From NCBI RefSeq assembly GCF_044324875.1, contig NZ_CP172185.1: DNA of 64,000 nt; one strand, written 5' to 3'. This document shows, piece by piece, positions 1,304 to 28,494 of this stretch. The position numbers and the translations under genes were made by a program. This DNA is from Escherichia coli. Lineage in GTDB: Bacteria; Pseudomonadota; Gammaproteobacteria; Enterobacterales; Enterobacteriaceae. The notes below the pieces were generated by a model. The model made no database searches and was not told where the DNA came from. It saw nothing but the letters and a program-made list of their open reading frames with translations. Each line of letters begins with the position of its first letter. Position 1 is the stretch's first letter.

Positions 1304-3054
1304 CAGAACTCCGTAACACTGAAGGGGGCGGCATCATGTTCACCGCCGACAGGTTCGTTGATAACGGCCAGCATGGTGGCCCATGCAAGATCGCCATGGC
1401 TTACGCCTCTTGCGCGATCTGTTTCGTAGGTGATAAATCCGGCCTGCGTTTTTGTTTTGCGTACCGCGTTAAAGGCGCTCACCAGTTCGCGCTCGCTGCG
1501 GTCGTACTCCCACCGCCCGGCGCGCATGAGCTGCAGCATCTTCAGAACCAGCGTGCGCTTTGATGACAGGGTGAAGGTGTAGGGAATGGCTGCCGGAAAA
1601 AAGCGCTTCACAATCTGATACACCGCATCCCCGTGACCGCCGGTTACGTCAATACCGATATGCTCAACGTTATAGCGAAAGGTGAACTCTTCAATCACCT
1701 TCGCCTGCGCCTCAAACTCCAGCCCCTGCACCCGCCGCGTCTCCACGGTGCGAAAACGCCCGCCCGGTACGGCTGGCGGCACCACCACGACAACCGCCCC
1801 GCTGTCACCGTTCCCGCTACTGCCGTTGGCGTCGTACCCAATCCACACAGGGCGGTTCCCCATCGGACGCGGTGCAAACGGCTTCCAGTCCGGCCACTCG
1901 TCGTATCCGTCAACACCGCAGCCAATCAGGATATTCAGGTTAAATGCCGATTCCCCTTCGCGAGCAAATTCACACATGTAGAGATTGCGGAACTCGTCTT
2001 CAGTGTTATTGCGCCGGATTTTGTCAATGTTGGTTAACGTCCATCCCTGACTGACCACATCTTCCAGCGTCACAATTTGCCGCCAGATATAGTCAGGACA
2101 GATAAGGCCGTTATGAAGCGCATTCCAGCTCACATCAAAATGCTGACGTTTATGAGTACGAAGCCCTTCATTCCAGTGATCGCCGTTCCAGTATGCATAC
2201 GCCTCATGTGTTTCACTTGATGGCGTGGAAAAATAGGTACACCGCAAACCATCCAGCGTTGCCATAGCAGCAGCCACCTTGCGCAGCTCTGCGAAACGCC
2301 CCGTCCAGAAAAACTCATCAAAATACAGATTCCCTGTGTACGCTTGCGCGGTGGCCGCAGAAGTGCCGAGAAAATGCAGCTCTGCACCGTTGGAGAGGAT
2401 GACTTTATCGCCCCCTTTCAGTTCCACATCAACTTCAGATGCAGCCTTCTGAATAATGCTTTTAAACTGGAGCGCCTGACGACGAGACGCAGACAAAAAA
2501 ATCTGGTTACGCTGGTAAGGTTGTGCCACATCGTCACGCAGCGCCATCAGCAGCGCTTCCTGCGCAAAATACCAGGTCGCCCCAATCTGGCGGGATTTCA
2601 GGATCATCCTGTCAGTAATTCCGGCACGCTCACAGGCACCGATAGCATCAAGCCATTTGCGCTGGTGTCCGGCCAGCCTGTCGGTAATTTTTTCCCGCAG
2701 CGCCGCGATCTGTTCCGGCGTGAAATGATTTTTGCGTTTTTTCGCCCGGCCTTTCTTTCCTGTTGCCGTCTCATCCGGCAGACCGTCATGCAGCTTTTTA
2801 AGCTGACGGGTCAGCAAATCAATTTCCTTAAAGTCCCCGCCTGTTTTATTCTGTTTTTCCGTGAGCTGAATGAGTCGCGCATCCATGGACTGCGTGACAC
2901 GCTGAACCGGGGGCGTCTCATCCCACTGGTCGCGTTTTTTCCACGAATGGATCGTGTTCTGGTTGATACCCATAAGGCGGGAAATTTCCGCAACAGGGTA
3001 ACCCTGCCAGTACAGCTGGCGTGCCCGCTGGCGAACAAATGTATCCTGAATCAT
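1303..3054 (-). CDS. P: Terminase large (ATPase) subunit, P2 gpP-like
   Basis: 583-aa ORF immediately upstream of Q on the same strand, 1-nt start/stop overlap; terminase-like size and context. Confidence 0.8.
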   Translation of the reverse strand: MIQDTFVRQRARQLYWQGYPVAEISRLMGINQNTIHSWKKRDQWDETPPVQRVTQSMDARLIQLTEKQNKTGGDFKEIDLLTRQLKKLHDGLPDETATGKKGRAKKRKNHFTPEQIAALREKITDRLAGHQRKWLDAIGACERAGITDRMILKSRQIGATWYFAQEALLMALRDDVAQPYQRNQIFLSASRRQALQFKSIIQKAASEVDVELKGGDKVILSNGAELHFLGTSAATAQAYTGNLYFDEFFWTGRFAELRKVAAAMATLDGLRCTYFSTPSSETHEAYAYWNGDHWNEGLRTHKRQHFDVSWNALHNGLICPDYIWRQIVTLEDVVSQGWTLTNIDKIRRNNTEDEFRNLYMCEFAREGESAFNLNILIGCGVDGYDEWPDWKPFAPRPMGNRPVWIGYDANGSSGNGDSGAVVVVVPPAVPGGRFRTVETRRVQGLEFEAQAKVIEEFTFRYNVEHIGIDVTGGHGDAVYQIVKRFFPAAIPYTFTLSSKRTLVLKMLQLMRAGRWEYDRSERELVSAFNAVRKTKTQAGFITYETDRARGVSHGDLAWATMLAVINEPVGGEHDAAPFSVTEF

Positions 3055-3118
3055 TTCTCCCCCTCATGTGATTCAGGCAGTTTACTCACCCCTTACAGGC
3101 CTCCTGCCATGCCCGGTG

Positions 3119-3136
3119 TTGTCGGCATTCGCTTAC
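3119..3136. promoter_or_regulatory. TGT-N12-ACA box (candidate Ogr-type late-promoter activator site) in divergent P/O intergenic region
   Basis: tgtCGGCATTCGCTTaca read directly; centred ~74 bp from P start and ~82 bp from O start; P2 late promoters are known to carry TGT-N12-ACA near -55. Confidence 0.5.
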
Positions 3137-3208
3137 AACAAACGCACTTTGTCTGTCCCTGCCCCGTTTTGCCATCATGAGACAAACGATCATCACGAGG
3201 GCCCGACA

Positions 3209-4045
3209 ATGCCTGAACAGAAAAAAACATCCCGTAAAACATTCCGCGTGGCCGTTTCCGGTCCCACCGCAGACGGTCGCGAAATCAGCGCCGCAGATTT
3301 GCGCGCGGCGGCCAGTAACTTCAACCCTGAGATTTACGGCGCACGCGTGAACGTGGAGCACTGGCTTTCACCGGTTCCGTCCAGTGAATTTTCCGCCATG
3401 GGTGATGTGACGGCACTGAGCACAGAAGAAATCACCGAAGGTCCGCTGGTCGGTCGTACTGCGCTGTATGCGAAAATCGAACCCACCGACCGCATGAAAA
3501 ATCTGGTCTCCCGGGGTAAGAAAATTTACTCCAGTATTGAGCTGGCACGAAATTTCACCCCTACGGGCACCCCGTATCTTATTGGCCTTGCCATGACAGA
3601 CACCCCGGCAAGCATCGGCACGGAGCGTCTTCAGTTCGCCCTGCAGCAGCGCCGTTCGGTCATGACCTTCAATAATCAGCAGACGGAAGCACCGATGTTC
3701 TCTGACGCCATTGAGGCTGAAGTGATCGAACTGACGGAGCGCCGCAGCGAGGAAGGTGCGCAGTGGTTTAACCGCGTGATGAACATGATTGGGCGAGGAC
3801 GCAGGGCTGACGACACCCGGTTCTCCCGCATTCATGACGCCGTTGAGGGGATAGCCTCATCGCATGCCGACCTTCTCGACCGCTTCAGTGCACTGGAATC
3901 GCGCCATCAGGCAGACAGACAGAAAGTCGCCACCCTGTCCACTGAGCTGGCAGAGCTGAAAAACAGACTGCGCGGACTGGACGCTGATCAGCAAAGTCGT
4001 TTTACGGCAACCGGCGGGCAGTCCAGACAACTGGCTGACTACTGA
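3209..4045 (+). CDS. O: Capsid scaffolding protein, P2 gpO-like
   Basis: Track ORF 3068-4045; start moved to ATG 3209 (MPEQKKTSRKTFRVAVSGPTADGREISAADL...) by comparison with recalled P2 O N-terminus. Confidence 0.8.
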   Translation: MPEQKKTSRKTFRVAVSGPTADGREISAADLRAAASNFNPEIYGARVNVEHWLSPVPSSEFSAMGDVTALSTEEITEGPLVGRTALYAKIEPTDRMKNLVSRGKKIYSSIELARNFTPTGTPYLIGLAMTDTPASIGTERLQFALQQRRSVMTFNNQQTEAPMFSDAIEAEVIELTERRSEEGAQWFNRVMNMIGRGRRADDTRFSRIHDAVEGIASSHADLLDRFSALESRHQADRQKVATLSTELAELKNRLRGLDADQQSRFTATGGQSRQLADY

Positions 4046-7618: not shown

Positions 7619-8022
7619 GACCGGTTTACGCCGTGATTGTTGCCCTCATGGTGACCGCCCTGACGGCAGTGGCCATGTGGCAGTCATACCGGCTGGGGCG
7701 TGCCGGTGAGGCACGTGACGCCGCAGAGCAGCAGCTGGGCGAATACAGCCGGGCGCTGCGTGAGTCCTCCGCCGTTATCAGCGATGCCTCCGCCGTACTG
7801 CATGAGGTGATGACGCAGCGACAGAAAAGGGCACAGGAAGGAGAAGTCAGACGTGAACAGCTTCGCGAAATTGCTGCGACGGATGAGTGCGCCGGCACTC
7901 TTCCTGACCACCGTTTTACTGACCGGCTGCGCGAACACACGGAACGCGCCACTGCCCGCGCCCTCCTTCCGGTTCATTCCGGCGGGACTGACGACGGGAA
8001 CACGGCCCCCGCCCTTCCCTGA
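7615..8022 (+). CDS. i-spanin (Rz / P2 LysB-like), N-terminal TM anchor
   Basis: ATG 7615 overlaps endolysin stop (ATGA); MRPVYAVIVALMVTALTAVAMW TM then charged coiled-coil-like region. Confidence 0.65.
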   Translation: MRPVYAVIVALMVTALTAVAMWQSYRLGRAGEARDAAEQQLGEYSRALRESSAVISDASAVLHEVMTQRQKRAQEGEVRREQLREIAATDECAGTLPDHRFTDRLREHTERATARALLPVHSGGTDDGNTAPALP

Positions 8023-8167
8023 ACACCCCACATGGGGAAATATCGGGATATGGAGCGACAGCCTCCTGGATGCACTGGAAACCTGCAACGCAGACAAACA
8101 GGCCATTGAGGCGCTGGAGCGCCGGAGACTCAACCGACAGAACGGAGGGGGACATGCTGAAAAGTAA
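7853..8167 (+). CDS. o-spanin lipoprotein (Rz1 / P2 LysC-like), in +1 frame overlapping and extending past the i-spanin gene
   Basis: Signal peptide MNSFAKLLRRMSAPALFLTTVLLTGC with lipobox LTGC; proline-rich mature part; start could alternatively be the internal Met at 7883. Confidence 0.6.
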   Translation: MNSFAKLLRRMSAPALFLTTVLLTGCANTRNAPLPAPSFRFIPAGLTTGTRPPPFPEHPTWGNIGIWSDSLLDALETCNADKQAIEALERRRLNRQNGGGHAEK

Positions 8168-8618
8168 ATCCCTGAGCACACACATGAGTACAGCGTGCCG
8201 GTGGTGCAGGGCCAACCCGGAAAAGTTCACCGTGTTCATTGAACGTGGCGGGATAGAGACCACCGGCGAGACGCCGACGTTCGTGTACAACTACCGGCTC
8301 GTGATGTTCGTCATGGACTACACGGGCGACCTGGACGACCTGACGCTTCCACTGATTGTCTGGCTGGCAGAGAACCAGCCGCAGTTGCTGCTTAATCCTG
8401 AGCGCAACGGCGATATTCAGTTCACGGCGGCCATTAACGACGACGACAGTGCGGACGTGCTTTTTGAGCTGCCGCTGCGCGAGCGCGTGCGCGTCACCCG
8501 CAGGGATGACGGCACCCTCACAACGGAACATCTGCCGGAGCCGAAATCGCGCATCCCGCAGGACGGCGACTGGTCGCACATTCTGGAGGATGTGACGTGG
8601 GAGGTGACCGGTGACTGA
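8154..8618 (+). CDS. R: Tail completion protein, P2 gpR-like
   Basis: Start set at ATG 8154 (MLKSKSL...); VMFVMDYTGDLDDLTLPLIVWLAENQP resembles recalled P2 R. Confidence 0.75.
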   Translation: MLKSKSLSTHMSTACRWCRANPEKFTVFIERGGIETTGETPTFVYNYRLVMFVMDYTGDLDDLTLPLIVWLAENQPQLLLNPERNGDIQFTAAINDDDSADVLFELPLRERVRVTRRDDGTLTTEHLPEPKSRIPQDGDWSHILEDVTWEVTGD

Positions 8619-9252
8619 CAGGGCTTTCACTGAACTGGACCGCACAATGCGGACCATCAGCAGCGGACTTTCCCCGCAGGCACTGAGCCGCATTGCCGGA
8701 CAGCTTGCCAGAGAGGTTCGCCGCAGCCAGCAACAGCGTATGCGCGCACAGAAAGCGCCGGACGGTACACAGTGGGAGCCGCGCAGACGGCGCATCAGCC
8801 GCCTGCAGCAGCGTATCCGCTTCATCCGGAACAACGAAACCCGCACGCTGAAAAACTGGCATCACGACGTGAGCAGACACGGACGCACCATCACCGGCTG
8901 GGATGAGGATAAGGGAGGCCTGCGCACCTTCTACCGGGAGGATATCACCCGTTATATTGAAATCAGCACCCGCCGCATCAGCCGCAACGCCACAAAGACC
9001 GTACCGATGTTTGCGAAGCTGCGCACGGCACGCTACCTGAAAGCCAGAGGCGATGCGGGCGGTCTGACCGTCGGTTATGACGGCGTGGCGGCACGCATTG
9101 CCCGCGTTCACCAGTTCGGGGAGCGCGACCGGGTGGCCGCAGGGGTGTATACGGATTATCCGGCCCGTGAACTTCTTGGAATAACACCGGCAGATGAACG
9201 GCTGATTGCCGACAGGCTACTGAACCGCATTGCGGGAGAAATATCATCATGA
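8611..9252 (+). CDS. S: Tail completion / virion morphogenesis protein, P2 gpS-like
   Basis: 213-aa ORF; GTG at 8611 (next in-frame ATG 8647); overlaps R stop and V start. Confidence 0.7.
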   Translation: MTDRAFTELDRTMRTISSGLSPQALSRIAGQLAREVRRSQQQRMRAQKAPDGTQWEPRRRRISRLQQRIRFIRNNETRTLKNWHHDVSRHGRTITGWDEDKGGLRTFYREDITRYIEISTRRISRNATKTVPMFAKLRTARYLKARGDAGGLTVGYDGVAARIARVHQFGERDRVAAGVYTDYPARELLGITPADERLIADRLLNRIAGEISS

Positions 9253-13852: not shown

Positions 13853-16800
13853 CTAATCTCTGTCACGGAAACTACCGACTGTCTGGCGGATACGGCGTTC
13901 CATTTCCGCACGGACGGCATCACCCACCATTTTTGCCAGTTCGCGCGGGTTTTGCGTGTGAACATCATGCAGGTGAATATGCAGTTCGCCAGTTAATCCC
14001 CATGGTGCCGGATCACTCTGACGCGGTCGGGGCGATGCGGGGGATATGGGCTGGCGCACAGCCTCAACCACCGGACGGGATGTTGCCGTTACGACGGGTG
14101 TCATTACCGGCGCAATATTGCCGGACACTACCGGTTTAATTACCGGGGAGAGCGTCGGTATAACATCGCCAGCCATAACCGGTTTGATCGCTGGCGAAAT
14201 AACCGGAGCAACAGACTCAGCCATGACGGAACTGACAGGCTGAGGCGCTCTCACTATGCCAGCATCGATAACCAGCATGAGCTCGCGTACTGCCTCAAGG
14301 ACAGGACGGGATATTGCCGCCATCACTGGTGTCATTAGCGGGGAGAACGTCGGCATGACATCGTGAGTCATAACCGGTTTGATCACCGGCGAAACCACCG
14401 GCGTAATATTACCGGACAGTACCGGACGGACGACCGGAGGAATAACCGGCACATTATTCACGGACACCACCGGCTTCACGACCGGCGACACGTTCGCCGT
14501 GGTGGATATCAGCGGCGAAACACTGACAGGCGGTGGCGCTGGCAGCGGTGGCAACGAAGGCACACTGACCGACGGCACCTGCGGCAGTCTGACAGGTGGC
14601 TCACTGACACTACCCGGTAACAGGGAAGCTGCGCGGTTAAAGCGTTCCTCCTTCCACTCACCACGAACGGCCAGCGCTTCCGGCAGGTTTTTAAAGATAA
14701 TATCGCCGGGACCAGTGCGTTTTTTCGCCTGTTTCGCCTCATCCAGCAGGCCACCGGTGTTATCGACGATTTTATTCAGGCGACGCATGGTGCCGGTATT
14801 CTCCCCCGTCAGCGGAGCAGTTGCTGCAGGTGCAGGTACTGGCGGCTTTTTGTCTTTGTCATTTTGCGGCGGATTAATGACATTAACATCCGCCAGGAGC
14901 ATGGCGGCTTTCTCGTTCAGCAGCTCCTTCTGCTTCAGCTCTTCCGCCTTTTTCCGGGCGCGCTCAACCGCCGACGGAATCAGCCCGAGTTTTTCCAGCA
15001 CCCGGGTTAATGAGTCAATCAGCAGCGTAACCGGACCGGTCACCAGATTGCTGATAAACTCCCCGACCTTCTGCCCGAACGTCCGCCCGGCTTCCGTGCA
15101 CTTGTCCAGCTCATCCTTTGTTGTGCTTACCGGCGCGAACAAATCCACGAACCACTGCCACACACGCCCGATTGTCTGCCCGACATACTCAAACAATGGT
15201 CCCAGTGGTGCCACAGCCTCGCGCAGTGGCGTAAGCCCCTGCCACAGGCCGGACAAGAACCCGCCCACGACAGCCTTCAGCTGGTCCCAGTGCCGCCAGA
15301 TAAGCACTGCCGCACCGACCAGTGTCGCCACCACAAGGCCCACCGGACTTAACAGAAAACCCAGCGCCCCGCCAAGTGCGCCCACCGCACCACTCACCAT
15401 CCCCCACAGTGCGGGCAGACCTGACAGTCTGAGCGCCAGTATTCCGATACCGCGCCCCAGTGAAATCAGTGCGCCGCCAGGTGAAGTGAACGCAGCCAGC
15501 AGACCACCACGCAGCGCGCCAAGTCCCGCCTGCACACCACGAAGCCGCCCCGCAACTACGCCCAGCAGTGCAGCAAACCGTCCGGCACCGGAGGTGATAC
15601 CGACAAACAGCACGCGCCAGCCACCGATACCGCCCAGCGGACCACCGAGTACGCCGCGCAGCTGCGTCAGTAACGGCAGCGCACGACCGAGGCCGGATGT
15701 GCCGGTCAGCAGGGCAAACCCAAGACGCAGTTTTGCCAGCGGCCCCATCAACACACCAGTGGCAAGTGACAGCGCCCCCATGGCCGCAACCGCAGCCAGC
15801 AGTGCACCACCGGCAATCAGCAGTTGTTTTGTCAGTTCAGGGTGCGCCTGGGCCAGCGCGGTGACTTTCGCAATAACCCGGGTGAACGACTGCGTGACAG
15901 AACGCAGCGGCCCGTCAACGAGGTCAGCGACACGGATACGCAGCCCTTCCCATGCGCTGTTCAGTGATTTCAGGTCGCCGTCCAGGTTGTCCGCCATGAT
16001 TCTGGCGTTTTCTTCCAGTTCGCCGTTCGCTGCCTGAATCTCACGCGTCAGGCGCGGCAGGTTTTTTTCGCCTGCCTGTTCAACCAGGCTCATCAGGGAG
16101 ACATACGCCTCCTGCCCGGCAATATCTGAAAAGAACGAGACTTTTGCCGCGTTACCGTATTTACGGGTGGCCTGATACAGCTCATACAGGATATCTTCCA
16201 TCGGGCGCATGTTCCCGTAAGCATCCTGCGTTTCCACGCCCAGCTGTTTCAGCGCCTTTGCTGCCGCTTTAGGCGGGTTCACAAGGCGGGACAGACTGGA
16301 GCGCAGCGCCGTACCAGCATCACTGCCACGTATCCCCATCGACCCAAGCAACCCGGTCATGGCTGCGGTCTGTTCAAGAGACAGACCGAGTGAGGCGGCG
16401 ACCGGTCCCGTATATTTCATCGTCTCACCAAGCCCGCGCAGGTCGGTATTGGTGCGGGTGAACGTTGCGGCCAGCGTGTCACCCACGCGGTTCATCTGGT
16501 CGGCAGACAACCCGAACTGCGTAAGGATATTTGAGCTGATATCGGCCGTCTGACCGAGGTCCATGCCGCTGGCCGTTGCCAGATTCAGCACGCCGGGAAG
16601 AGCCGCCTGTATCGCCTGCGGCGTGAACCCCGCCATGGCAAGGAACGCCTGACCGCTGGCAGCATCACCTGCGGTAAACTGCGTTTCGGAGCCGAGTTTA
16701 AGCGCCTGTTCGCGCAGCGCCTTAAACTGCGGACTGTTTTTGTCAATACGGGTCAGCGCCTGGACGCGCGACATCTCCTTACCAAAACTGACCGCCGGTT

Positions 16801-17431
16801 GCAGGAAACGCCCGGCCGCATAGCCACCTGCCGCTGCCGTGCCGACTGCCGTAAATCCACCCGCTTTCAGTTTTCCCGCCATCTCCTGAGCGCGGAAATA
16901 TTGCTGGCGTGCCTGCGTGACGCGTGCCAGAGTCTGCCGTTCACGTTCCAGCTGTTCGTTGTATTGCTGTGTTCGCCGTATGGCCTGTTGAATGGTGTTG
17001 TCACTGCCGGAAAGCGCAATACCGTGACGCCGCAGCTCACCACCCAGTTCGCGCATTCGCTGAACTTCACGCGCACGGACCTCATTGAGACGCTCAAGTT
17101 TGAGGCTCAAATCGTTCATCAGCTTTTTCTGTTTGTCAGACAGCACGGTTCCGGCGCGCTGAATTTGCTGAAGTGCGCTTAACTGGCGTTGTGCCCGGGC
17201 AATGCCGTTTCCGGCCTTGTTTGCAGCCTCGCGGGCGCGATCAAATGAACGGGCGTGGCGTTCCAGGTTTTTGATCGCACCCTGCGTTCTCTGTATGGAG
17301 TCGCCAAGCTGGCCCATCATGCGACGGGCGTTTTCGGTGGGACGGGTCAGCCTGTCAACAGCGCTGAAGGCGACCCGTATATCAAGCGTTTTCATGCTCT
17401 GCGTTCCCGCTGCGAAGGGCCGCCCGCTCAC
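13853..17431 (-). CDS. T: Tail tape measure protein, P2 gpT-like (1192 aa)
   Basis: Very long ORF; coiled-coil N-terminal part, Gly/Ala-rich hydrophobic central segment, Pro/Val-rich repetitive C-terminus; follows E/E' as in P2. Track start is GTG 17431 with SD GAGGTGG; alternative ATG at 17395. Confidence 0.85.
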   Translation of the reverse strand: MSGRPFAAGTQSMKTLDIRVAFSAVDRLTRPTENARRMMGQLGDSIQRTQGAIKNLERHARSFDRAREAANKAGNGIARAQRQLSALQQIQRAGTVLSDKQKKLMNDLSLKLERLNEVRAREVQRMRELGGELRRHGIALSGSDNTIQQAIRRTQQYNEQLERERQTLARVTQARQQYFRAQEMAGKLKAGGFTAVGTAAAGGYAAGRFLQPAVSFGKEMSRVQALTRIDKNSPQFKALREQALKLGSETQFTAGDAASGQAFLAMAGFTPQAIQAALPGVLNLATASGMDLGQTADISSNILTQFGLSADQMNRVGDTLAATFTRTNTDLRGLGETMKYTGPVAASLGLSLEQTAAMTGLLGSMGIRGSDAGTALRSSLSRLVNPPKAAAKALKQLGVETQDAYGNMRPMEDILYELYQATRKYGNAAKVSFFSDIAGQEAYVSLMSLVEQAGEKNLPRLTREIQAANGELEENARIMADNLDGDLKSLNSAWEGLRIRVADLVDGPLRSVTQSFTRVIAKVTALAQAHPELTKQLLIAGGALLAAVAAMGALSLATGVLMGPLAKLRLGFALLTGTSGLGRALPLLTQLRGVLGGPLGGIGGWRVLFVGITSGAGRFAALLGVVAGRLRGVQAGLGALRGGLLAAFTSPGGALISLGRGIGILALRLSGLPALWGMVSGAVGALGGALGFLLSPVGLVVATLVGAAVLIWRHWDQLKAVVGGFLSGLWQGLTPLREAVAPLGPLFEYVGQTIGRVWQWFVDLFAPVSTTKDELDKCTEAGRTFGQKVGEFISNLVTGPVTLLIDSLTRVLEKLGLIPSAVERARKKAEELKQKELLNEKAAMLLADVNVINPPQNDKDKKPPVPAPAATAPLTGENTGTMRRLNKIVDNTGGLLDEAKQAKKRTGPGDIIFKNLPEALAVRGEWKEERFNRAASLLPGSVSEPPVRLPQVPSVSVPSLPPLPAPPPVSVSPLISTTANVSPVVKPVVSVNNVPVIPPVVRPVLSGNITPVVSPVIKPVMTHDVMPTFSPLMTPVMAAISRPVLEAVRELMLVIDAGIVRAPQPVSSVMAESVAPVISPAIKPVMAGDVIPTLSPVIKPVVSGNIAPVMTPVVTATSRPVVEAVRQPISPASPRPRQSDPAPWGLTGELHIHLHDVHTQNPRELAKMVGDAVRAEMERRIRQTVGSFRDRD
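14060..14500. repeat. Imperfect tandem duplication (~230-bp unit) inside the 3' part of the tape measure gene
   Basis: gcctcaaccaccggacgggatgttgccg...gtgtcattaccgg (14061-) vs gcctcaaggacaggacgggatattgccg...gtgtcattagcgg (14292-); encodes repeated ...PVIKPVM..DV.PT.SP...SRPV.EAVR... units. Confidence 0.6.
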
Positions 17432-17958: not shown

Positions 17959-18477
17959 TTAACCACCAAGACCAATCGCCGAGCGCACGCGGTCCGGGAA
18001 GACGCTTTTGCCGTCCTTGCGTTCGATGTGGTTCAGTAAATCAATCTCCAGCACCGGACGGTCGTTAATGCTGAGTTTGTAGTAGGTACTTTTGACCGCA
18101 TAGGTGTGAGACGTGACCTCACCCTGTTTGGCCTCCCCGGTATCAATTTCCGTCACGCGACCGCGAAGCTCAATCTCGTACAGGTCACTCTGTTCTTCAT
18201 CGTTGTAGTACTCACCGACAAAGCGCAGCAGCGTACCGTCAATCGTTCCGCCGTACTTGAGGAACAGTTCGCGGGTCGGCCCGCCCATGGTGAAACTCGC
18301 ATCCAGCGCGCCGTCATCCAGGCCAAGGTCGATATTTACTGCACCGGCCATACCACCACCGCGATAGGCTTCCGTTTTACGGGTCAGTTTGGGGGGCGTG
18401 AAGCCGGTCACCCTGCCAATCTGGTTCACCCCGTCAGTAAACAGCGTGAACACCCTGAGATTTTTTGGTACGGCCAT
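17959..18477 (-). CDS. FII: Tail tube protein, P2 gpFII-like
   Basis: 172-aa ORF downstream of sheath gene; size and context. Confidence 0.85.
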   Translation of the reverse strand: MAVPKNLRVFTLFTDGVNQIGRVTGFTPPKLTRKTEAYRGGGMAGAVNIDLGLDDGALDASFTMGGPTRELFLKYGGTIDGTLLRFVGEYYNDEEQSDLYEIELRGRVTEIDTGEAKQGEVTSHTYAVKSTYYKLSINDRPVLEIDLLNHIERKDGKSVFPDRVRSAIGLGG

Positions 18478-18779
18478 TAAGCACCTCCAAGCGTCGCAAA
18501 TGCAGGACCAAAGAATTCATCAGTAAACGTCTGGTAAAGTTCCATATCCTCAAGCGGCGGAACGGGCGTGTACTTGTAGCGGATACGCACGCGTCCCTGA
18601 CGAAGTTCCGTGGTGCTGTTATCCACCACGTCATACCAGCACTCCGCACCAACGAGACGTCCTGACGTAACCAGCGCATCCAGTTTTGCGCGAATTGCGC
18701 TTAACACGTCTTTCACATTAGCAGGGGTCAGCGGGGCATCAATCGTTTCAAACTGCGCTTCCGCAACAGAATCAGCCAG

Positions 18780-18786
18780 CACCTGA
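18780..18786. repeat. Target-site duplication CACCTGA (left copy) of the IS21-family element
   Basis: Identical 7-mer at 21426-21432; reconstructed FI reading frame needs exactly one copy. Confidence 0.7.
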
Positions 18787-18988
18787 TGCAAAATGGCATC
18801 TGAATCGATCGCAGTTTGGCATTCGAATCGATCATGATTTGGCATCCATCTCCGATCACAGTTTGGCATCACAATCGATCACGATTTGGCATGCTTCCGA
18901 TCATTGATTGGCATCCTGCCAGTCACTCCGGGAATTAACTCTTTTCACCACAGTCTCCATTGCCGTGTTTAAACCAGTGGAGACGTCA

Positions 18989-20554
18989 ATGTCCAGAAAG
19001 AGAAAATCCAGGAGCACTATGGAAACCTGTTTTAAGATCCTTCAGCTCAAGTTCGACAAGAAGCTGACTAACCGTTGTATCGGACTGACGTTACACATCA
19101 GCGCCTCAACCGTTTTTGAGGTTCTTGCCCGCTTCAAAGCCTCTTCTCTGTCATGGCCATTACCTGCTGATATATCCCATGACACGCTGGAGAAACTCAT
19201 TTTTCCGCCCAAAGACACCTTTGCATCAGAGCTTGTAATGCCTGACATGTTGTACTTCGATACGGAAATGAGAAAACCAGGTGTGACGCGGCAACTGTTG
19301 TGGATGGAATACAAGGCACAGGCGGGTAACAAAGCGATGGGATACTCGCACTTCTGCCGTTGCTACCGGGAGTGGAAAAAAACGCGACGTCTCTCCATGC
19401 GCCAGGAGCATCGTGCCGGCGAAAAGCTTTTTATCGACTTCTGTGGTCCTACGGTTCCTGTTATTAATCCGGACACCGGTGAGATACGCCGCGTGGCAAT
19501 CTTCGTGGCCGTAATGGGGGCGTCCAACTATACCTACGTTGAAGCGTGCGAAGGTCAGGACATGATGTCATGGTTAAATGCCCACAGCCGTTGCCTGACC
19601 TTCCTGGGCGGCGTACCGAAGCTGCTCATCCCCGATAACCTCAGAAGCGCAGTGAAAAAGGCCGATCGATATGAGCCTGTCATCAACGACAGTTATCAGG
19701 CACTGGCTGAGCACTATGGCACGGTTATCATCCCGGCCCGACCACGCAAACCTAAAGATAAACCAAAAGCAGAAAACGGCGTCCTCATCGTTGAACGATG
19801 GCTTCTTGCCCGCATCCGTAATGAAACCTTCCACACGCTCAGGGCGCTGAATGCGCGCCTTAGGGAGTTACTGACAGACATGAATAACCGGCCAATGAAG
19901 GGGTACGGCAATCAAACCCGTGCAGAACGCTTCCGCATACTGGATGCGCCAGCACTCTCTCCGCTGCCTCTGGCACCTTATGAATACACGGAATACAAAG
20001 CTGTGAAGGTTGGCCCTGACTACCACGTTGAATATGCCCGTCACTGGTACTCCGTTCCACACGAACTGGTCGGTCAGCGTCTGTCACTGAAGGCGGGGCA
20101 GTCGGTGGTACAGCTCTGGCACAAGGGGCAGTGTGTGGCGCAACATCCGCGCAGCACACATGAATATAAACACACAACCAATCCGCTTCACATGCCAGAG
20201 CGCCACCGGCAGCACGGGACATGGACACCGGAACGCCTGATCGAGCAGGGAAAACGTACGGGCCCGTCCACAGGCCGGGTGGTTGAATCCATGCTGAAGG
20301 CAAAACCCCATCCGGAACTGGCTTATCGTGCAGTTCTGGGGCTGCTGGCACTTCAGAAAAAATACGGCCCGGAACGGCTGGAAAAGGCCTGTTACGTTGC
20401 CCTGCACTATAACGCCCCTGACAGACGCTTTATCGACAATCTGCTGCGTCACCATCGGGAGAACCTGGAGCTTCCATTATCCCGCCAGGGCGAACAACAT
20501 CCGGCATATGCTTCAGAGCATGAAAACCTGCGTGGTCCGGGCTACTACCACTGA
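18989..20554 (+). CDS. istA: IS21-family transposase IstA
   Basis: Start set at ATG 18989 after GGAG (track begins at a TTG at 18908); N-terminal HTH-like segment, ~520 aa; immediately followed by istB. Confidence 0.8.
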   Translation: MSRKRKSRSTMETCFKILQLKFDKKLTNRCIGLTLHISASTVFEVLARFKASSLSWPLPADISHDTLEKLIFPPKDTFASELVMPDMLYFDTEMRKPGVTRQLLWMEYKAQAGNKAMGYSHFCRCYREWKKTRRLSMRQEHRAGEKLFIDFCGPTVPVINPDTGEIRRVAIFVAVMGASNYTYVEACEGQDMMSWLNAHSRCLTFLGGVPKLLIPDNLRSAVKKADRYEPVINDSYQALAEHYGTVIIPARPRKPKDKPKAENGVLIVERWLLARIRNETFHTLRALNARLRELLTDMNNRPMKGYGNQTRAERFRILDAPALSPLPLAPYEYTEYKAVKVGPDYHVEYARHWYSVPHELVGQRLSLKAGQSVVQLWHKGQCVAQHPRSTHEYKHTTNPLHMPERHRQHGTWTPERLIEQGKRTGPSTGRVVESMLKAKPHPELAYRAVLGLLALQKKYGPERLEKACYVALHYNAPDRRFIDNLLRHHRENLELPLSRQGEQHPAYASEHENLRGPGYYH

Positions 20555-20570
20555 CAGAAGGAACAACAGT

Positions 20571-21326
20571 ATGAGTGATAACCTGTTAAACAAACTGACC
20601 CAACTGAAACTCCCGGCGATGGCCGGGAGCCTGATACGGCAGCGGGAAACGCCTCAGACCTACGACGAACTGTCGTTCGAGGAAAGGCTGACGCTGCTGG
20701 TTGATGACGAGCTTCTGAGCAGGGAAAACAGCCGTGTGGCACGGTTGAGAAAAAATGCCGGCCTGAAATACCAGGCAACACCGGAAGGGCTGCGCTATCC
20801 GGCCTCAAGAGGTCTGCGGGCTGAACAGATGAGAGAACTGCTGAACGGCCACTACATAACCCACAGGAAAAACCTGCTGATAACCGGTCCGACAGGATGT
20901 GGCAAGAGCTGGATAGCCAATGCGCTGGGCGAACAGGCATGTCGACAGAAACACAGCGTCCGGTACTGTAGAACCGGGCGATTACTGGAACAACTGGCTC
21001 AGGGACGTGTTGATGGCAGCTGGCTGAAATATCTGAAACAGTTGCAAAAAATACAGGTTCTAATCCTGGACGATCTGGGGCTGGAACAGTTAAGTAACGC
21101 CCAGTGTAATGACCTTCTGGAGCTCATAGAGGATCGTTACGGACAAAGCAGCACGATAGTGGTAAGCCAGTTCCCGGTAGATAAATGGCATGGTCTGATG
21201 GAGAACCCAACAACAGCAGATGCCATCCTGGACAGACTGGTACATAACTCACACCGAGTGGTCCTTCAGGGAGAGTCACTGAGGAAAAATCCCCCGGTAG
21301 TGGAAAGCAGCGAAAAAACGCGTTAA
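20571..21326 (+). CDS. istB: IS21-family ATP-binding helper protein IstB
   Basis: Start set at ATG 20571 after AAGGAA; Walker A GPTGCGKS and Walker B ILDDLG motifs, 251 aa. Confidence 0.85.
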   Translation: MSDNLLNKLTQLKLPAMAGSLIRQRETPQTYDELSFEERLTLLVDDELLSRENSRVARLRKNAGLKYQATPEGLRYPASRGLRAEQMRELLNGHYITHRKNLLITGPTGCGKSWIANALGEQACRQKHSVRYCRTGRLLEQLAQGRVDGSWLKYLKQLQKIQVLILDDLGLEQLSNAQCNDLLELIEDRYGQSSTIVVSQFPVDKWHGLMENPTTADAILDRLVHNSHRVVLQGESLRKNPPVVESSEKTR

Positions 21327-21425
21327 AAAGCGGTAGAAAAAGTTAAGTTCCCGGTTGATCGAATGGATGCGAATCGCTGATCGGACTTCGATGCCAATCC
21401 GTGATCGAATAGAGCGGAATACGCA

Positions 21426-21432
21426 CACCTGA
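21426..21432. repeat. Target-site duplication CACCTGA (right copy) of the IS21-family element
   Basis: See left copy at 18780-18786. Confidence 0.7.
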
Positions 21433-22482
21433 GCGGTTCGCGTGTACACCTCAAAGATATACGCCTTCGTTTCCGGCGTACGGTTGCCCCAGAAGCGGAA
21501 ACCGTTACGGCGAATGATGGTGGTGATTTCCTTGTTGTTGAGATTGTTGGCATCGCTGTCTTCGGACTGAAGGGACCAGAACACCGGGCTGGAAATACCC
21601 AGCACATTTCTTACCGGCACGTTGGACAGCGATTTATGCCAGCCCTGTTCGTGGTCAATACGTGCACGTAAACCGCAGGCGTACGCCGCAGCCGGGAAGA
21701 CCTCATTAGCGCCGGATTTCGGGTTATGGGCGATGAAGTCAGGCCAGAGCAGCATAAGTTCGCGCTCGTTAAATCTGGCGCGGTAGCTGATTGCATCAGC
21801 GGGCTTCTTGCAGTTGTGACAGCCCGCGTAGACAAATGCGCGAAGTTTTTCTGCAATTACACACAGGGATTTTGTGACAGCTTCAGTATCCAGTCCGGGC
21901 GCTGCGATGATGCGCGGACGGTAACCGATGGCATCATCCTGTTCAGCTATCAGAAGTGCATACATACCGGTATAATTACCGTCGCCATCCGTGCCACCAA
22001 TGACATACTGGTCCTGCGTTTTGTGTGGGTATACAGGATGTGCATCTTCAGACTCATCAATACCAAAAAATGCCCTGTCTTCAGGATCCAGATGACCGAA
22101 TGATGTAACTCCTGTATCCGGGGCGCCCTGAGAACTGGCATCAGGAACGCGCACCACAATCACCTTCGTGCTCACCTGGTCGGCGACAGCCTTAAGCGAT
22201 TTGTAAAGCGTCCCCTTTGTGCCGGCCTTACCCAGCACATCACTGACGCGGGTCAGCAGTGTGGGTTTGTTCAGCGGGAACAGAGTTTCATCCGCGTCAT
22301 CTGCCGTAGCCACAATACCAATAACACTGGAATCCACATCATTAATGGCGGTGGCAAGGCCGGTACTTTCCCTTACGCGCGCACCATGAAAGCGTGTTTC
22401 ACTCATATGTTTCACCCTTGTCTGGCTGGTTGATTTTGCGTAATCATTACCCACGATGCCGCCGGTATCATCTCCTGCCCGT

Positions 22483-22500
22483 TCTCACCGTTCGCTTACA
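22483..22500. promoter_or_regulatory. TCT-N12-ACA box (one mismatch to TGT-N12-ACA) in divergent FI/D intergenic region
   Basis: Shares the 16-mer TTCGCTTACAACAAAC with the P/O intergenic box; centred ~85 bp from FI start and ~76 bp from D start. Confidence 0.4.
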
Positions 22501-22566
22501 ACAAACAGCCGTTCACCACGGTCGCACGCCGTGAAAACATGACGGGACACACCACGAGGGCAGACC

Positions 22567-23658
22567 ATGACCGACCTGTTAATCAACGTTCCGTCACCGG
22601 ATATCGAAATCACCATCAACAACAACAGACTCCGTAACGTCACGGAGCGGCTCATGACGCTGTCACTGACCGACAACCGGGGCTTTGAGGCGGACCGCGT
22701 CACCCTGACCATTGACGACGCGGACGGGCAGCTTCAGCTGCCACAGCGCGGCGCACGCCTGAACGTGATGATTGGCTGGCGCGGGGAGGCGCTGGTTAAC
22801 AAGGGTGTCTACATCGTTGATGAAGTGACGTGGGAAGGCCCGCCGGACAAACTGACCATCACCGCCAGCAGCGCCGATTTTCGCGAAGAGTTCAACGTGA
22901 AGCGTGAAGTCTCCTGGCACGACGTGACGGTAAAACAGGTTGTGTCAGCCATCGCGCACCGCTACGGCCTGAAAGCACAGATAAGCGATATCCTCATGGA
23001 TATCGAAATTGACCACGCAGACCAGACCGAAGAGAGCGATATATCCTTCCTGACCCGCATGGCTGAAATGCTGGGTGCGATTGCCACCGTAAAAAACGGC
23101 AGCCTGTTATTCATTCTGCCGGGTGGCGGAACCGGGCCGGACGGAAAAGCCCTGCCTTCGTTCGCCATTACCCGCAGCAGCGGCGACAGTCACCGCTTTC
23201 GCATTGCTGACCGTGATGCGTATACGGGGGTCCGGGCGCACTGGCTCGATCTGAAGTTCGGGCAAAAGAAAAAAGTGAACGTGAAGCGACGCAGGGAAGC
23301 CGGGAAACAGAAACAGGAGAAGAGCAGCAGCCGGGAAGGTGATTACATGGAGGGCGCGGAAGGGAACGTCTACGTTCTGCGCAGGACTTACCAGAATGAA
23401 GAAACCGCACGACGTGCAGCAGCTGCAAAGTGGCAGGAACTACAGCGGGGCGCGGCATCATTCTCCATCACGCTGGCGCGCGGTCGTGCCGACCTGTACC
23501 CTGAAATGCACGGCAGGGTAACAGGTTTTAAAAGCGAGGTGGACAATCAGGACTGGATTATTGCCAGGGTGGAGCACAGCATAGATGAAAGCGGCTTCAC
23601 CACACAACTGGAGCTGGAAGCGAAAATCCCCGAATGGATAGCAGATTCAGGCGGATAA
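22567..23658 (+). CDS. D: Tail protein, P2 gpD-like
   Basis: 363-aa ORF; size and position before ogr; leader CACGAGGGC shared with O gene leader. Confidence 0.8.
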   Translation: MTDLLINVPSPDIEITINNNRLRNVTERLMTLSLTDNRGFEADRVTLTIDDADGQLQLPQRGARLNVMIGWRGEALVNKGVYIVDEVTWEGPPDKLTITASSADFREEFNVKREVSWHDVTVKQVVSAIAHRYGLKAQISDILMDIEIDHADQTEESDISFLTRMAEMLGAIATVKNGSLLFILPGGGTGPDGKALPSFAITRSSGDSHRFRIADRDAYTGVRAHWLDLKFGQKKKVNVKRRREAGKQKQEKSSSREGDYMEGAEGNVYVLRRTYQNEETARRAAAAKWQELQRGAASFSITLARGRADLYPEMHGRVTGFKSEVDNQDWIIARVEHSIDESGFTTQLELEAKIPEWIADSGG

Positions 23659-23701
23659 AATTAAAATGAGCCATCTCCACTCAGCCAGATAAGGAGAAGC
23701 C

Positions 23702-23953
23702 ATGTTCCGTTGTCCCCTGTGCGGTGCATCCGCACGTATCCGCACCAGTCGCAATGAAAATGATTCAGGCACAGTTCGCCTGAAGTACTACCAGTGCAAT
23801 AACCTCGAATGCGGGATCGGCTTTACCACACTGGAGGGTTTTAACAAATTCACATCAAAACGCGCCCCGTCGCCGCAGGGTACAGAGCGGATACCGTGGG
23901 AAGATTTTCCGGGATCTCACAGGGGGAATGCTCAGATGAATCTTGATATTTAA
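23702..23953 (+). CDS. ogr: Ogr/Delta-type zinc-finger late transcription activator
   Basis: MFRCPLCGASARIRTSR...YYQCNNLECG: CxxC...CxxxxC arrangement and N-terminal similarity to recalled P2 Ogr. Confidence 0.8.
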   Translation: MFRCPLCGASARIRTSRNENDSGTVRLKYYQCNNLECGIGFTTLEGFNKFTSKRAPSPQGTERIPWEDFPGSHRGNAQMNLDI

Positions 23954-24002
23954 GAACAATAATCAGGTTGAGAGGACATCATAAGGCAAGTAGATTAACG
24001 GC

Positions 24003-24097
24003 AGATACTTTCCCGCAACCACGGGCAAGTATTTAATTATCCATGATGAAATATGACCTAAATTGTTTTTTGCCCGCCGGAAAGCGGGCATTTTTTT
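24003..24097 (+). ncRNA. Candidate small RNA cassette 1 (promoter TTGAGA-17-TAGATT at 23968-23996; hairpin + U7 terminator 24072-24097)
   Basis: Exact 17-bp spacer; stem GCCCGC/GCGGGC then TTTTTTT; no convincing RBS or ORF; also serves as terminator after ogr. Confidence 0.35.
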
Positions 24098-24311
24098 ATT
24101 CTTTTGTGGTTATGGGGTCATCAGGAACCACGTGCAGATTATATTTTTGTTTTTTTGGCGTTCCTCCGGCAGCAACGAGTTCATCAATAAGACACTGACA
24201 CGCCTGAACATCCCGGGCATGTCTTAGTTTCACCTTTATTGATTTAACCTTATCCTCACCGGAGGAGAAATGCAGTTCAATCTCAATATCGTTTCTTCGG
24301 AACAATCTCAT
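24096..24311 (-). CDS. Hypothetical 71-aa protein (no family recognised)
   Basis: ATG preceded by AGGGGG; MRLFRRNDIEIELHFSSGEDKVKSIKVKLRHARDVQACQCLIDELVAAGGTPKKQKYNLHVVPDDPITTKE; AT-rich upstream region with TATAAT-like elements. Confidence 0.4.
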   Translation of the reverse strand: MRLFRRNDIEIELHFSSGEDKVKSIKVKLRHARDVQACQCLIDELVAAGGTPKKQKYNLHVVPDDPITTKE

Positions 24312-24483
24312 ACGCCCCCCTGAATATATCAGAAATGCTAGTATCGAAAAATGAGAAAACAGTTAGACAGGAGAAACATATTAACACAAATCATTTATAC
24401 CTATAGATGAAATTATAATTTCATTCATGAATATGATAGATAACTATATTGTGAACAAAATGAAAAATGGCTAAATTAAAAAT

Positions 24484-24564
24484 GGGCATGGAGGAATGCC
24501 TCGTAATCAGTAATACATGATCCATACTTCCTTGTTTTGCCCGCCGGAAAGCGGGCATTTTTTT
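24484..24564 (+). ncRNA. Candidate small RNA cassette 1b (promoter TTGTGA-17-TAAATT at 24449-24477; terminator 24539-24564)
   Basis: Same terminator sequence as cassette 1; body shares ATACATGATCCATAC-like segment with the other cassettes. Confidence 0.3.
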
Positions 24565-24668
24565 GGCGGTTACCATCGCCTCACCTTCCTGGTTCACACA
24601 AAGCAACCCTGATTTTCCATGAAAACTTCAGGGTTGAGCCAAAAGCACAAAGACAGTAGATTAACCAA

Positions 24669-24767
24669 GGGTACCCGCCACCTGCCAACAGGAACGGTAT
24701 CCAGTACGTATTAATGACTGACAATTCACATTGCTGTTTTGCCCGCCAGAAGGTGGGCATTTTTTTG
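24669..24767 (+). ncRNA. Candidate small RNA cassette 2 (promoter TTGAGC-17-TAGATT at 24634-24662; terminator 24741-24767)
   Basis: Terminator stem GCCCGCC/GGTGGGC carries substitutions relative to cassettes 1 and 1b that keep pairing; 5' body ACCAAGGGTACCCGCCACCTGCCAACAGGAA. Confidence 0.4.
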
Positions 24768-24871
24768 GCAGTTATCATGGACGCACCTTCATGACACATA
24801 TTAAGCAGACCTGATTTTTCCATGAAAAATTCATGGTTGAGACAAAAGCACAAAAACAGTAGATTAACCAC

Positions 24872-24969
24872 GGGTGCCTGCCACCTGACAACAGGAAGGG
24901 GTGTCCATTATCCATGATATACAAACGAAAAGTCTTGTCTTTTGCCCGCCGTTGCGCGGGCTTTTTTTT
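24872..24969 (+). ncRNA. Candidate small RNA cassette 3 (promoter TTGAGA-17-TAGATT at 24837-24865; terminator 24944-24969)
   Basis: Terminator stem GCCCGC/GCGGGC with different loop (CGTTGC); 5' body ACCACGGGTGCCTGCCACCTGACAACAGGAA ~85% identical to cassette 2. Confidence 0.4.
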
Positions 24970-25366
24970 ATCCAAGAACCCTGTCTGCAGCAACACGCGC
25001 CAGAAATCCAGAGCGGCTACCGTATTCAGGATGAGACTCAACGAACTGATCAATGCGACGAATAAGCAGAGATGGCAGGGTAACATTGATTTTTTCCGAT
25101 TTCCCCATCAGGCGGGACACATCCACCTCAACGAGCGCCCACACTGCATCACTGTATTCAGGATCTGATTGCCATTCATCAAGATTTGTAGCGACAGGGA
25201 TAGACTCACCAGATTCAACCAGTAATTCTACGTGTGCCTCAATGGCTTCACGGGCACTGTCTACCGCATCCTGAAAACTATCACCGCCAGAAAAACAGCC
25301 GGGCAGATCTGGGACGCGAACACCAAAAGATGAATCCCCCCGGTCAATAGCGATTGCATATAACAT
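24968..25366 (-). CDS. hicB: HicB-family antitoxin (N-terminal HicB fold plus C-terminal ribbon-helix-helix)
   Basis: 132-aa ORF MLYAIAIDRGDSSFGVRVPDLPGCFSGGDSFQDAVDSAREAIEAHVELLVESGESIP...KINVTLPSLLIRRIDQFV; GGAGG 5 nt before ATG; 22 nt downstream of hicA. Confidence 0.7.
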   Translation of the reverse strand: MLYAIAIDRGDSSFGVRVPDLPGCFSGGDSFQDAVDSAREAIEAHVELLVESGESIPVATNLDEWQSDPEYSDAVWALVEVDVSRLMGKSEKINVTLPSLLIRRIDQFVESHPEYGSRSGFLARVAADRVLG

Positions 25367-25388
25367 TGAGACCTCCAGAAGGTGGGGC

Positions 25389-25568
25389 TTACAGCCCCGC
25401 CTGTTTCTTAATACTTTTTAAAGTTGGTAAAGGTATATCTTTTTGAGGGTGTTTTACCGTTACCAGCCCCTTCTTTGTCGGATGTTTGAATTGATGATGA
25501 CTCCCCTTAACCCTAACAAGATACCATCCATCCGCCTCTATCATTGCTATTGCACTTTTGCTATCCAT
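25389..25568 (-). CDS. hicA: HicA-family mRNA-interferase toxin (59 aa; absent from ORF track because <60 aa)
   Basis: Manual translation MDSKSAIAMIEADGWYLVRVKGSHHQFKHPTKKGLVTVKHPQKDIPLPTLKSIKKQAGL; matches the recalled HicA pattern GW...GSHH.F.HP...G.VTVPHP.KDL..GTL.SI.KQAGL. Confidence 0.65.
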   Translation of the reverse strand: MDSKSAIAMIEADGWYLVRVKGSHHQFKHPTKKGLVTVKHPQKDIPLPTLKSIKKQAGL

Positions 25569-25588
25569 CCCCCCGTACTCCGTCTTTC

Positions 25589-25617
25589 GTTGTTGGAGTT
25601 ATTATAACCCCAACAAC
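25589..25617. promoter_or_regulatory. Palindrome GTTGTTGG-N13-CCAACAAC upstream of hicA (candidate operator)
   Basis: Perfect 8-bp arms read directly; GGAGTTATTA also repeated at 25595 and 25636. Confidence 0.35.
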
Positions 25618-25767
25618 TAGTCAAAGCAAGGGTTCGGAGTTATTAGAGTTATAGAATAATTGACTGCCTCCCCAAAACTGCGGCAAGAAAAAACCACTGA
25701 CCACGGTCAATTTGTGGATCATGAATTAATTTTTATTTATAAATCAATGCATTATACAAAGAAAAAA

Positions 25768-25787
25768 GGCCGCAGAGCGGCCTTTTT
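25768..25787 (-). terminator. Intrinsic terminator downstream of ihfA (bidirectional hairpin)
   Basis: ggccgcagagcggcc stem-loop flanked by A-run upstream and T-run downstream. Confidence 0.6.
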
Positions 25788-25799
25788 AGTTAGATCAGA

Positions 25800-26099
25800 T
25801 TACTCGTCTTTGGGCGAAGCGTTTTCGACCCGGCTTTTTAACTTCTGCCCGGGTCTGAAGGTCACCACGCGCCGTGCTGTAATGGGAATATCCTCGCCCG
25901 TTTTCGGGTTACGTCCCGGGCGTTGATTCTTATCACGCAGATCGAAGTTACCAAAACCAGAGAGTTTCACCTGTTCGCCGTTTTCCAGAGCGCGACGGAT
26001 CTCTTCGAAAAACAGTTCAACCAGTTCTTTGGCATCCCGCTTGCTAAGCCCAAGCTTATCAAACAGATATTCTGACATTTCAGCTTTTGTAAGCGCCAT
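25800..26099 (-). CDS. ihfA: Integration host factor alpha subunit
   Basis: 99-aa translation [92 protein letters not shown]... recognised as E. coli IHF-alpha. Confidence 0.95.
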
Positions 26100-26103
26100 A
26101 GGT

Positions 26104-28494
<2,391 letters not shown>

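Follow-up and report, generated by a model that had tools for sequence, protein, structure and literature searches.

The left 26 kb of the window, by which we mean the whole analysed stretch of 64,000 nucleotides, represent a P2-like prophage, and the chromosome in which it resides is that of E. coli, to which katE (44260-46521) shows 99.9% identity. In P2, the promoter PF is unidirectional and FI-FII-E-T-U-D constitute one operon, in which D comes last, lacks a separate promoter and overlaps with the end of U. In the window, where the prophage genes were named by Pfam and PHROG matches and FI, FII, T, D, O, P and an Ogr_Delta protein were identified (Table 1), the block from FI to U is inverted relative to the P2 order and D-ogr is located across the activator site. 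Because of this inversion, FI and D diverge from a gap of 160 bp (22407-22566). A Pfam-supported ogr gene follows directly downstream of D, 43 nt after the D stop codon, and its product contains four cysteines and is 42% identical to P2 Ogr. The linkage of D and ogr holds in phage P88 too, where the ogr homologue (NC_026014 5183-5443, 86 aa, MFRCPLCGASARIRTSR...) starts 42 nt after D but is left without annotation in the RefSeq record. The closest named phages with the same gene order are P88 and other Xuanwuvirus (about 75% DNA identity), phiT5282H, KSP20 and Klebsiella Reipivirus phages. Matches to FI/D-divergent prophages were found in about a quarter of the complete E. coli genomes (approximately 1400 of 5426), and the arrangement was also seen in phages of Klebsiella, Enterobacter, Serratia and Citrobacter. 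As judged from ORF lengths and synteny with the annotated locus of E. coli 23CRST011, a hicA/hicB toxin-antitoxin pair, ihfA and pheT are located beyond the right prophage end (24581-28491), and there are no early or integration genes on the ogr side of the prophage.

Table 1. Features of the prophage late region discussed in the text (window coordinates; a dot marks features without strand).
Feature	Position	Strand	Basis and details
Terminase P	1303-3054	-	Pfam/PHROG
Scaffold O	3209-4045	+	Pfam/PHROG
Tail genes R, S, V, W, J		+	Pfam/PHROG
U, tape measure T, E, tube FII	T 13853-17431; FII 17959-18477	-	Pfam/PHROG
FI, tail sheath, N-terminal ~327 codons	21425-22406	-	Pfam Phage_sheath_1; start codon at 22406
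Gene D, tail/baseplate hub, 363 aa	22567-23658	+	Pfam Phage_GPD; first possible start in ORF
ogr homologue, 83 aa, C4 zinc finger	23702-23953	+	Pfam Ogr_Delta, E 4.9e-14
P/O bidirectional late promoter (comparator)	3079-3178	.	PP -10 TAAACT (reverse complement of 3079-3084), dyad 3118-3139 (centre 3128.5), PO TGc-CATCAT 3170-3178
Predicted Ogr-binding dyad GTTCT-N12-ACAAC	22481-22502	.	Core TCT 22483-22485, ACA 22498-22500; centre 22491.5
16-mer TTCGCTTACAACAAAC	22491-22506	+	3' 7 nt of spacer, right half-site ACAAC, AAAC
Predicted PF -10 AATGAT (reverse complement of ATCATT)	22443-22448	-	Centre 46 bp left of dyad centre
Weak -35-like element for PF, ATGATA	22466-22471	-	17-bp spacer; TG invariant (22469-22470, CA on +)
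Predicted PF start	22436 (±2 nt)	-	55.5 bp from dyad centre; 30-nt leader to FI ATG 22406; transferred from P2 (P start 3016)
Predicted extended -10 of the D promoter (PD)	22532-22540	+	TG 22532-22533, a, AAACAT 22535-22540; hexamer centre 46 bp right of dyad centre
Predicted PD start, A	22547 (±2 nt)	+	55.5 bp from dyad centre; 20-nt leader; geometry transferred from P2 (O start 3127, site centre 3071.5)
D ribosome-binding region	22553-22566	+	CACGAGGGC, Shine-Dalgarno GAGGG 22556-22560, AGACC before ATG 22567; resembles O leader 3194-3208
Terminator-like hairpin and T-run, predicted D-ogr transcript end	24071-24097	+	Terminator scan; intrinsic type
Mosaic patch, ~540 bp	22455-22990	.	Activator site, PD and first 430 nt of D; 8-45% divergent from sister prophage

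The initial annotation had drawn attention to a 16-nt motif (TTCGCTTACAACAAAC) which recurs upstream of O and between FI and D. The window contains exactly two copies of it, one in the P/O gap (3128-3143) and one in the FI/D gap (22491-22506), both on the plus strand, and the FI/D gap also contains the TCT-N12-ACA element described together with it (TCT 22483-22485, ACA 22498-22500). The distances of about 85 and 76 bp claimed for the centre of this dyad are correct, as it lies at 22491.5, i.e., 85.5 bp from the FI start codon (22406, minus strand) and 75.5 bp from that of D (22567). The complete site reads GTTCT-CACCGTTCGCTT-ACAAC (22481-22502), and the P/O gap carries the perfect extended dyad GTTGT-CGGCATTCGCTT-ACAAC at 3118-3139. 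With TCT rather than TGT as its left half-site, the element at 22483-22500 fits five of the six core bases of TGT-N12-ACA and nine of ten in the extended form, and P2's own sites likewise fit five of six (TGT-N12-CCA). After aligning the two gaps, as had been proposed for checking the repeat, we obtained a local alignment better than 1998 of 2000 shuffles, and this signal comes from the activator site; the upstream part of the alignment (P-side versus FI-side) was without significance in 2000 shuffles. The proposed close match between the D and O leaders turned out to be weak evidence: CACGAGGGC is common to the two and found nowhere else in the window (3194-3202, 6 nt before the O start codon, and 22553-22561, 5 nt before that of D), but the overall similarity of the leaders was reached by 136 of 2000 shuffles (p of about 0.07).

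Because the window contains nine maximal exact repeats of at least 16 nt, a repeat of this length is unremarkable by itself, and chance alone should give about two matches to GTTGT-N12-ACAAC if one mismatch is allowed. Both values would suit a coincidental repeat in a gap that contains no activator site at all. However, the matches to this pattern in the window are solely those in the two divergent late-gene gaps, and the placement of the 16-mer in both of them is not due to chance. Since the half-sites and both -10 elements are, moreover, invariant at fixed spacing in all relatives, we consider a mere coincidence extremely improbable.

To calibrate the expected geometry, we used the annotation and sequence of the P2 RefSeq record NC_001895. 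It lists one 'activator binding site; pO, pP promoters' at 3057-3087, with the transcripts of P and O starting at 3016 (minus strand) and 3127 (plus strand), respectively. The dyad TGT-N12-CCA is centred at 3071.5, so that both mapped starts are 55.5 bp away from it, and the hexamers TAGCCT and GAAACT flank it with their centres 46 bp away. Within the FI/D gap there is a single dyad, and the conserved -10 hexamers around it are separated by 92 bp between centres (46 + 46), which is identical to P2 (3025.5 to 3117.5). As in PP/PO of P2, one partly symmetric site is thus located midway between two divergent late operons with -10 centres 46 bp to each side, and the geometry is repeated to the base pair, with starts about 111 bp from each other that are mapped in P2 and predicted here. 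Both systems also have in common that the promoters are weak and lack a consensus -35 element, and that an Ogr-family activator is encoded by the same phage, the dependence on which is a prediction for the FI/D gap. They differ in location (between P and O in P2, between FI and D here), in their half-sites (TGT...CCA versus TCT...ACA) and in the conserved TGn extension of the rightward FI/D promoter. In the P/O gap of the window itself, the hexamer centres are 47 bp to each side of the dyad, and this plan is kept in relatives.

The FI/D hexamers AATGAT and AAACAT are weak and keep only A2 and T6 (plus A5). Scanning 22350-22620 for sigma-70 consensus promoters yielded none in the FI/D gap, as expected for activator-dependent promoters, and the element ATGATA may serve as a poor -35 region of PF. 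The composite pattern of a leftward -10, the dyad and a TGn-extended -10 matches the 64 kb only at 3079-3178 and 22443-22540 with 0.05 matches expected, although this pattern was derived after the fact from these same sequences, which makes the test partly circular and an illustration rather than a proof. We consider it likely that the FI/D gap represents a bidirectional pair of Ogr-dependent late promoters, consisting of PF leftward and a D-ogr promoter rightward, which would share one common site. The initial annotation had overlooked the mirror position of the dyad, 46 bp from the conserved leftward -10 element of FI, and the site most likely belongs to both PF and the D promoter. In its dyad, its weak -10 elements and its association with an Ogr-family gene, the gap corresponds to the P2-type late promoters that depend on Ogr, and specifically to the PP/PO kind with one shared site.

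The conservation of these elements was analysed with the upstream regions of 80 IMG/VR loci encoding D relatives, which were aligned with those of P88 and the window. This resulted in 82 sequences, 58 of them unique, which are mostly near-identical P88-type sequences and correspond to an effective sample of about 12 lineages. All 82 gaps are FI/D-divergent and contain T[C/G]T-N12-ACAAC, with the T.T and ACAAC positions invariant in the relatives and the 12-nt spacer present in 19 forms. The leftward hexamer is located exactly 46 bp from the dyad (centre to centre) in every sequence and keeps A2, A5 and T6, occurring as AATGAT in the window and as GATGAT, GATTAT or AAAGAT in relatives. Likewise, a rightward TG-n-hexamer is present 46 or 47 bp from the dyad in all 82 sequences with TG, A2 and T6 retained, while the hexamer itself varies from AAACAT behind TGa in the window to GACCAT, AACCAT, GATCCT, GATGAT and AACTGT. 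By contrast, the distance from the dyad to the FI start codon drifts between 82.5 and 88.5 bp across the aligned loci, and the stretch from the D -10 hexamer to its ATG between 19 and 26 nt.

The same picture emerged from nine diverged lineages with a mean column identity of 54%, in which all 19 invariant columns fall inside 22434-22540 and include the TG as well as A2 and T6 of the rightward -10 element; the invariant column at 22434 is close to the predicted PF start. Serratia phage KSP20, Klebsiella phage Kp4845-1 (Reipivirus) and Enterobacter phage phiT5282H contain the same dyad and both -10 elements at the same 46-bp spacings, with GAATAT or GATTAT at the leftward position. Regarding the 16-mer, relatives keep ACAAC without exception and AAA with few exceptions, so that allele specificity is confined to TTCGCTT and the final C. 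The identity of the 16-mer is apparently not what matters, because the half-sites and the TGn-extended -10 at 46-47 bp are kept in the sister prophage and in all other relatives without it.

We also looked for other kinds of elements in the gap. A conserved hairpin or operator between the dyad and either -10 element was rejected, as the best inverted repeats in the nine lineages were no better than those of shuffles, and an Rfam scan of 22000-24700 for known RNA elements returned only a sub-threshold Trp_leader match on the terminator. A protein-coding ORF in the gap (22394-22534 in the window; gp50 of P88) was judged unlikely because of indels of 1-4 nt there among relatives. The 43-aa hypothetical ORF gp50, which is annotated at 3862-3993 of the P88 RefSeq record (NC_026014) across the FI/D promoter region, is probably spurious.

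The dyad might alternatively serve PF only, while D-ogr is transcribed from a nearby activator-independent extended -10 promoter of a middle or constitutive type, similar to the ogr promoter of P2. TGn-extended -10 elements can function without a -35 element or an activator, and the P2 record annotates a separate, Ogr-independent promoter for ogr. The polarity of the site also conforms to that of P2 PF, which shares with the promoter predicted here its position before the tail sheath operon, a similar distance from the site to the FI start codon (82.5 bp in P2, 85.5 bp here) and the combination of a perfect distal half GTTGT with an imperfect proximal one (GTTGT-N12-CCAAC in P2; GTTGT-N12-AGAAC here, read in the direction of FI). 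However, the spacing between the dyad and PD is fixed at 46-47 bp although the intervening 30 nt are unconserved and the leader length drifts, and it equals the spacing of PO both in P2 and in the prophage of the window. Moreover, D is a late structural gene, and early Ogr could be provided by separate hexamers before ogr: two adjoining TAAAAT -10-like sequences at 23656-23667 overlap the stop codon of D, precede the ogr ATG by 35-46 nt and constitute a candidate ogr promoter. An activator-independent origin of the D-ogr transcript consequently appears quite improbable to us.

If the shared late promoter pair is real, its function may be envisaged as follows. The prophage's Ogr-family zinc-finger activator would bind the one partly symmetric site GTTCT-N12-ACAAC and assist RNA polymerase at two weak promoters placed mirror-symmetrically around it. 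Ogr/delta/B-dependent late transcription of the P2 type needs the activator and its contact with the C-terminal domain of the RNA polymerase alpha subunit (and is rpoA109-sensitive), and the same contact would be expected here. From PF, leftward transcription starting near 22436 should cover FI-FII-E-T-U, whereas rightward transcription from PD, starting near 22547, should cover D-ogr and stop at the terminator-like hairpin behind ogr; a terminator scan detected none between D and ogr. Because ogr is located downstream of D, Ogr would reinforce its own synthesis, and the TAAAAT hexamers at the D stop codon may provide the first Ogr, like the separate ogr promoter of P2. Historically, the inversion of the FI-to-U block relative to P2 most likely brought D next to the symmetric PF site, and D afterwards required just a -10 element at the mirror position. 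D thus plausibly gained such an element beside an existing PF activator site and no separate activator site. The half-sites, perfect distally and imperfect proximally to FI as in P2 PF, give a weak hint at this history.

Predicted late promoters of other P2-like phages show related features. In Smp131, PP' and PO' were both assigned to one TGT-N12-ACA site (PMC3931495), and for the Ralstonia phages phiRSY1 and phiRSA1 a late-promoter motif TGTTGT-N13-ACAACA was proposed (PMC5694545). These systems, all of them predictions, share the extended half-sites GTTGT/ACAAC with the FI/D gap, and Smp131 also has one site for divergent P and O. They differ from it in having four sites tied to rearranged tail operons and no shared FI/D site (PMC3931495, PMC5694545), and the spacer of the Ralstonia motif has 13 nt versus 12 in the FI/D gap. 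We found no description of late promoters of P88-like phages or of a hub between FI and D in the searchable literature. The shared FI/D site is most likely a second copy of the design already known between P and O of P2, which would be a sensible but ordinary solution. It leaves the understanding of P2-type late regulation unchanged, and to those familiar with P2, who would expect some late promoter before D, this solution would be no surprise. If it exists as predicted, it accounts for the continued late control of D and ogr after the rearrangement of the operon, offers start sites that can be tested and represents a clean natural case of one activator site for two promoters. In addition, two P88 RefSeq annotations would be corrected, namely an ORF called across the promoter and the omitted ogr homologue.

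The particular FI/D allele of the window, with the 16-mer and the O-like leader, is rare and was found in eight of the 5426 complete E. coli genomes and in one IMG/VR genome. Strain 23CRST011, which is one of the eight, carries this allele with the hexamer AACCAT and an intact FI of 427 aa. A sister prophage (E. coli LH50-c and others), whose allele occurs in 22 of the same 5426 genomes, agrees with the window at 98-100% identity in FI, ogr and the 3' two-thirds of D, and this agreement is interrupted by the mosaic patch listed in Table 1. The left edge of the patch is directly after the conserved PF -10 region. Inside it, the sister has the canonical site TGT-CTCCTGACAGCG-ACA, and its P/O site is exactly that of the window. 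Because two spacer alleles thus coexist with near-identical ogr genes, the spacer is unlikely to matter for recognition, and the exact 16-mer in common with the O promoter appears to be an allele-specific oddity in a recombinant patch rather than a functional requirement. The initial proposal of a late promoter of its own for D is upheld in silico, but the 16-mer identity and the O-like leader, from which it had been drawn, are peculiar to one allele.

The 'P/O-type' site of this allele may have originated from ectopic exchange between the two hubs, from import out of an unsampled phage or by chance. The first of these origins, in which ectopic recombination or gene conversion would have transferred a part of the P/O promoter module to the FI/D gap, concerns only the history of the site and is compatible with a shared promoter. 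The FI/D spacer of the window fits all nine PO spacers at 7-9 of 12 positions, and its match to the own PO spacer (9 of 12) ranks at the top of 171 allele pairs, while 13 other pairs of PO and FI/D spacers from the same genome match at just 1-4 of 12 positions. The location of the site inside the 540-bp recombinant patch and the sister prophage, whose PO is the same while its FI/D spacer differs, also argue for copying. On the other hand, the similarity is limited to about 15 nt on either side of the dyad, with flanks, -10 regions and leader not significantly alike; the FI/D site is slightly nearer to P88-type PO sites than to its own PO, and another FI/D allele (L006) also ends with TTCTT, which makes some convergence possible. 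A donor was not found either: scanning IMG/VR with a 26-mer identified only the genome with the window allele and the PO of the sister, and a 19-mer scan of GTDB genomes gave one unrelated Hyphomicrobiales match. We regard copying from the P/O gap as a tentative option that is somewhat doubtful on this evidence. Two stronger versions were rejected, namely concerted evolution in the sense of a general likeness of PO and FI/D sites in the same genome, because of the 1-4 of 12 matching bases in the 13 other pairs, and an origin of the FI/D gap as a complete duplicate of the P/O gap, because no significant similarity extends beyond the 15 nt around the dyad. It is rather unlikely that the whole sequence of events applies, in which the inversion turned the one-way PF into a two-way hub and created a short D-ogr operon with tighter feedback than in P2, and an exchange between the hubs also replaced the site of this one by a P/O-type site in the present allele. 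If such an exchange took place, recombination is able to homogenise the late-promoter sites within a single phage.

A third late promoter corresponding to PV of P2 was also considered and rejected: the late region contains just one further TGT-N12-ACA (8305-8322), which is located inside gene R and has no -10 element at +46. Ahead of V (9249), no promoter resembling P2 PV was recognised in 8022-9252, and R, S and V are contiguous; therefore, the O operon may continue through the baseplate and fibre genes. Downstream of ogr, an exact direct repeat of 30 nt (TTTTGCCCGCCGGAAAGCGGGCATTTTTTT) was observed at 24068-24097 and 24535-24564, each copy of which forms a terminator-like hairpin, and the pair flanks about 440 bp.

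Finally, FI of the window is interrupted at about codon 327 by an IS21-family element (18783-21425), which leaves fragments in 21425-22406 and in the ORF 18477-18872 (C-terminal part), and the identity of FI to the sister prophage ends near 21425. Because FI is split by the element, the prophage is probably tail-defective, and the predicted PF would currently drive a broken operon. The element contains istA at 18908-20554, an istB gene ending at 21326 and multiple terminal repeats of 20 nt (CGATC..TTTGGCAT). An IS100 element is present in the sheath gene of phage 520873, where it was acquired independently.
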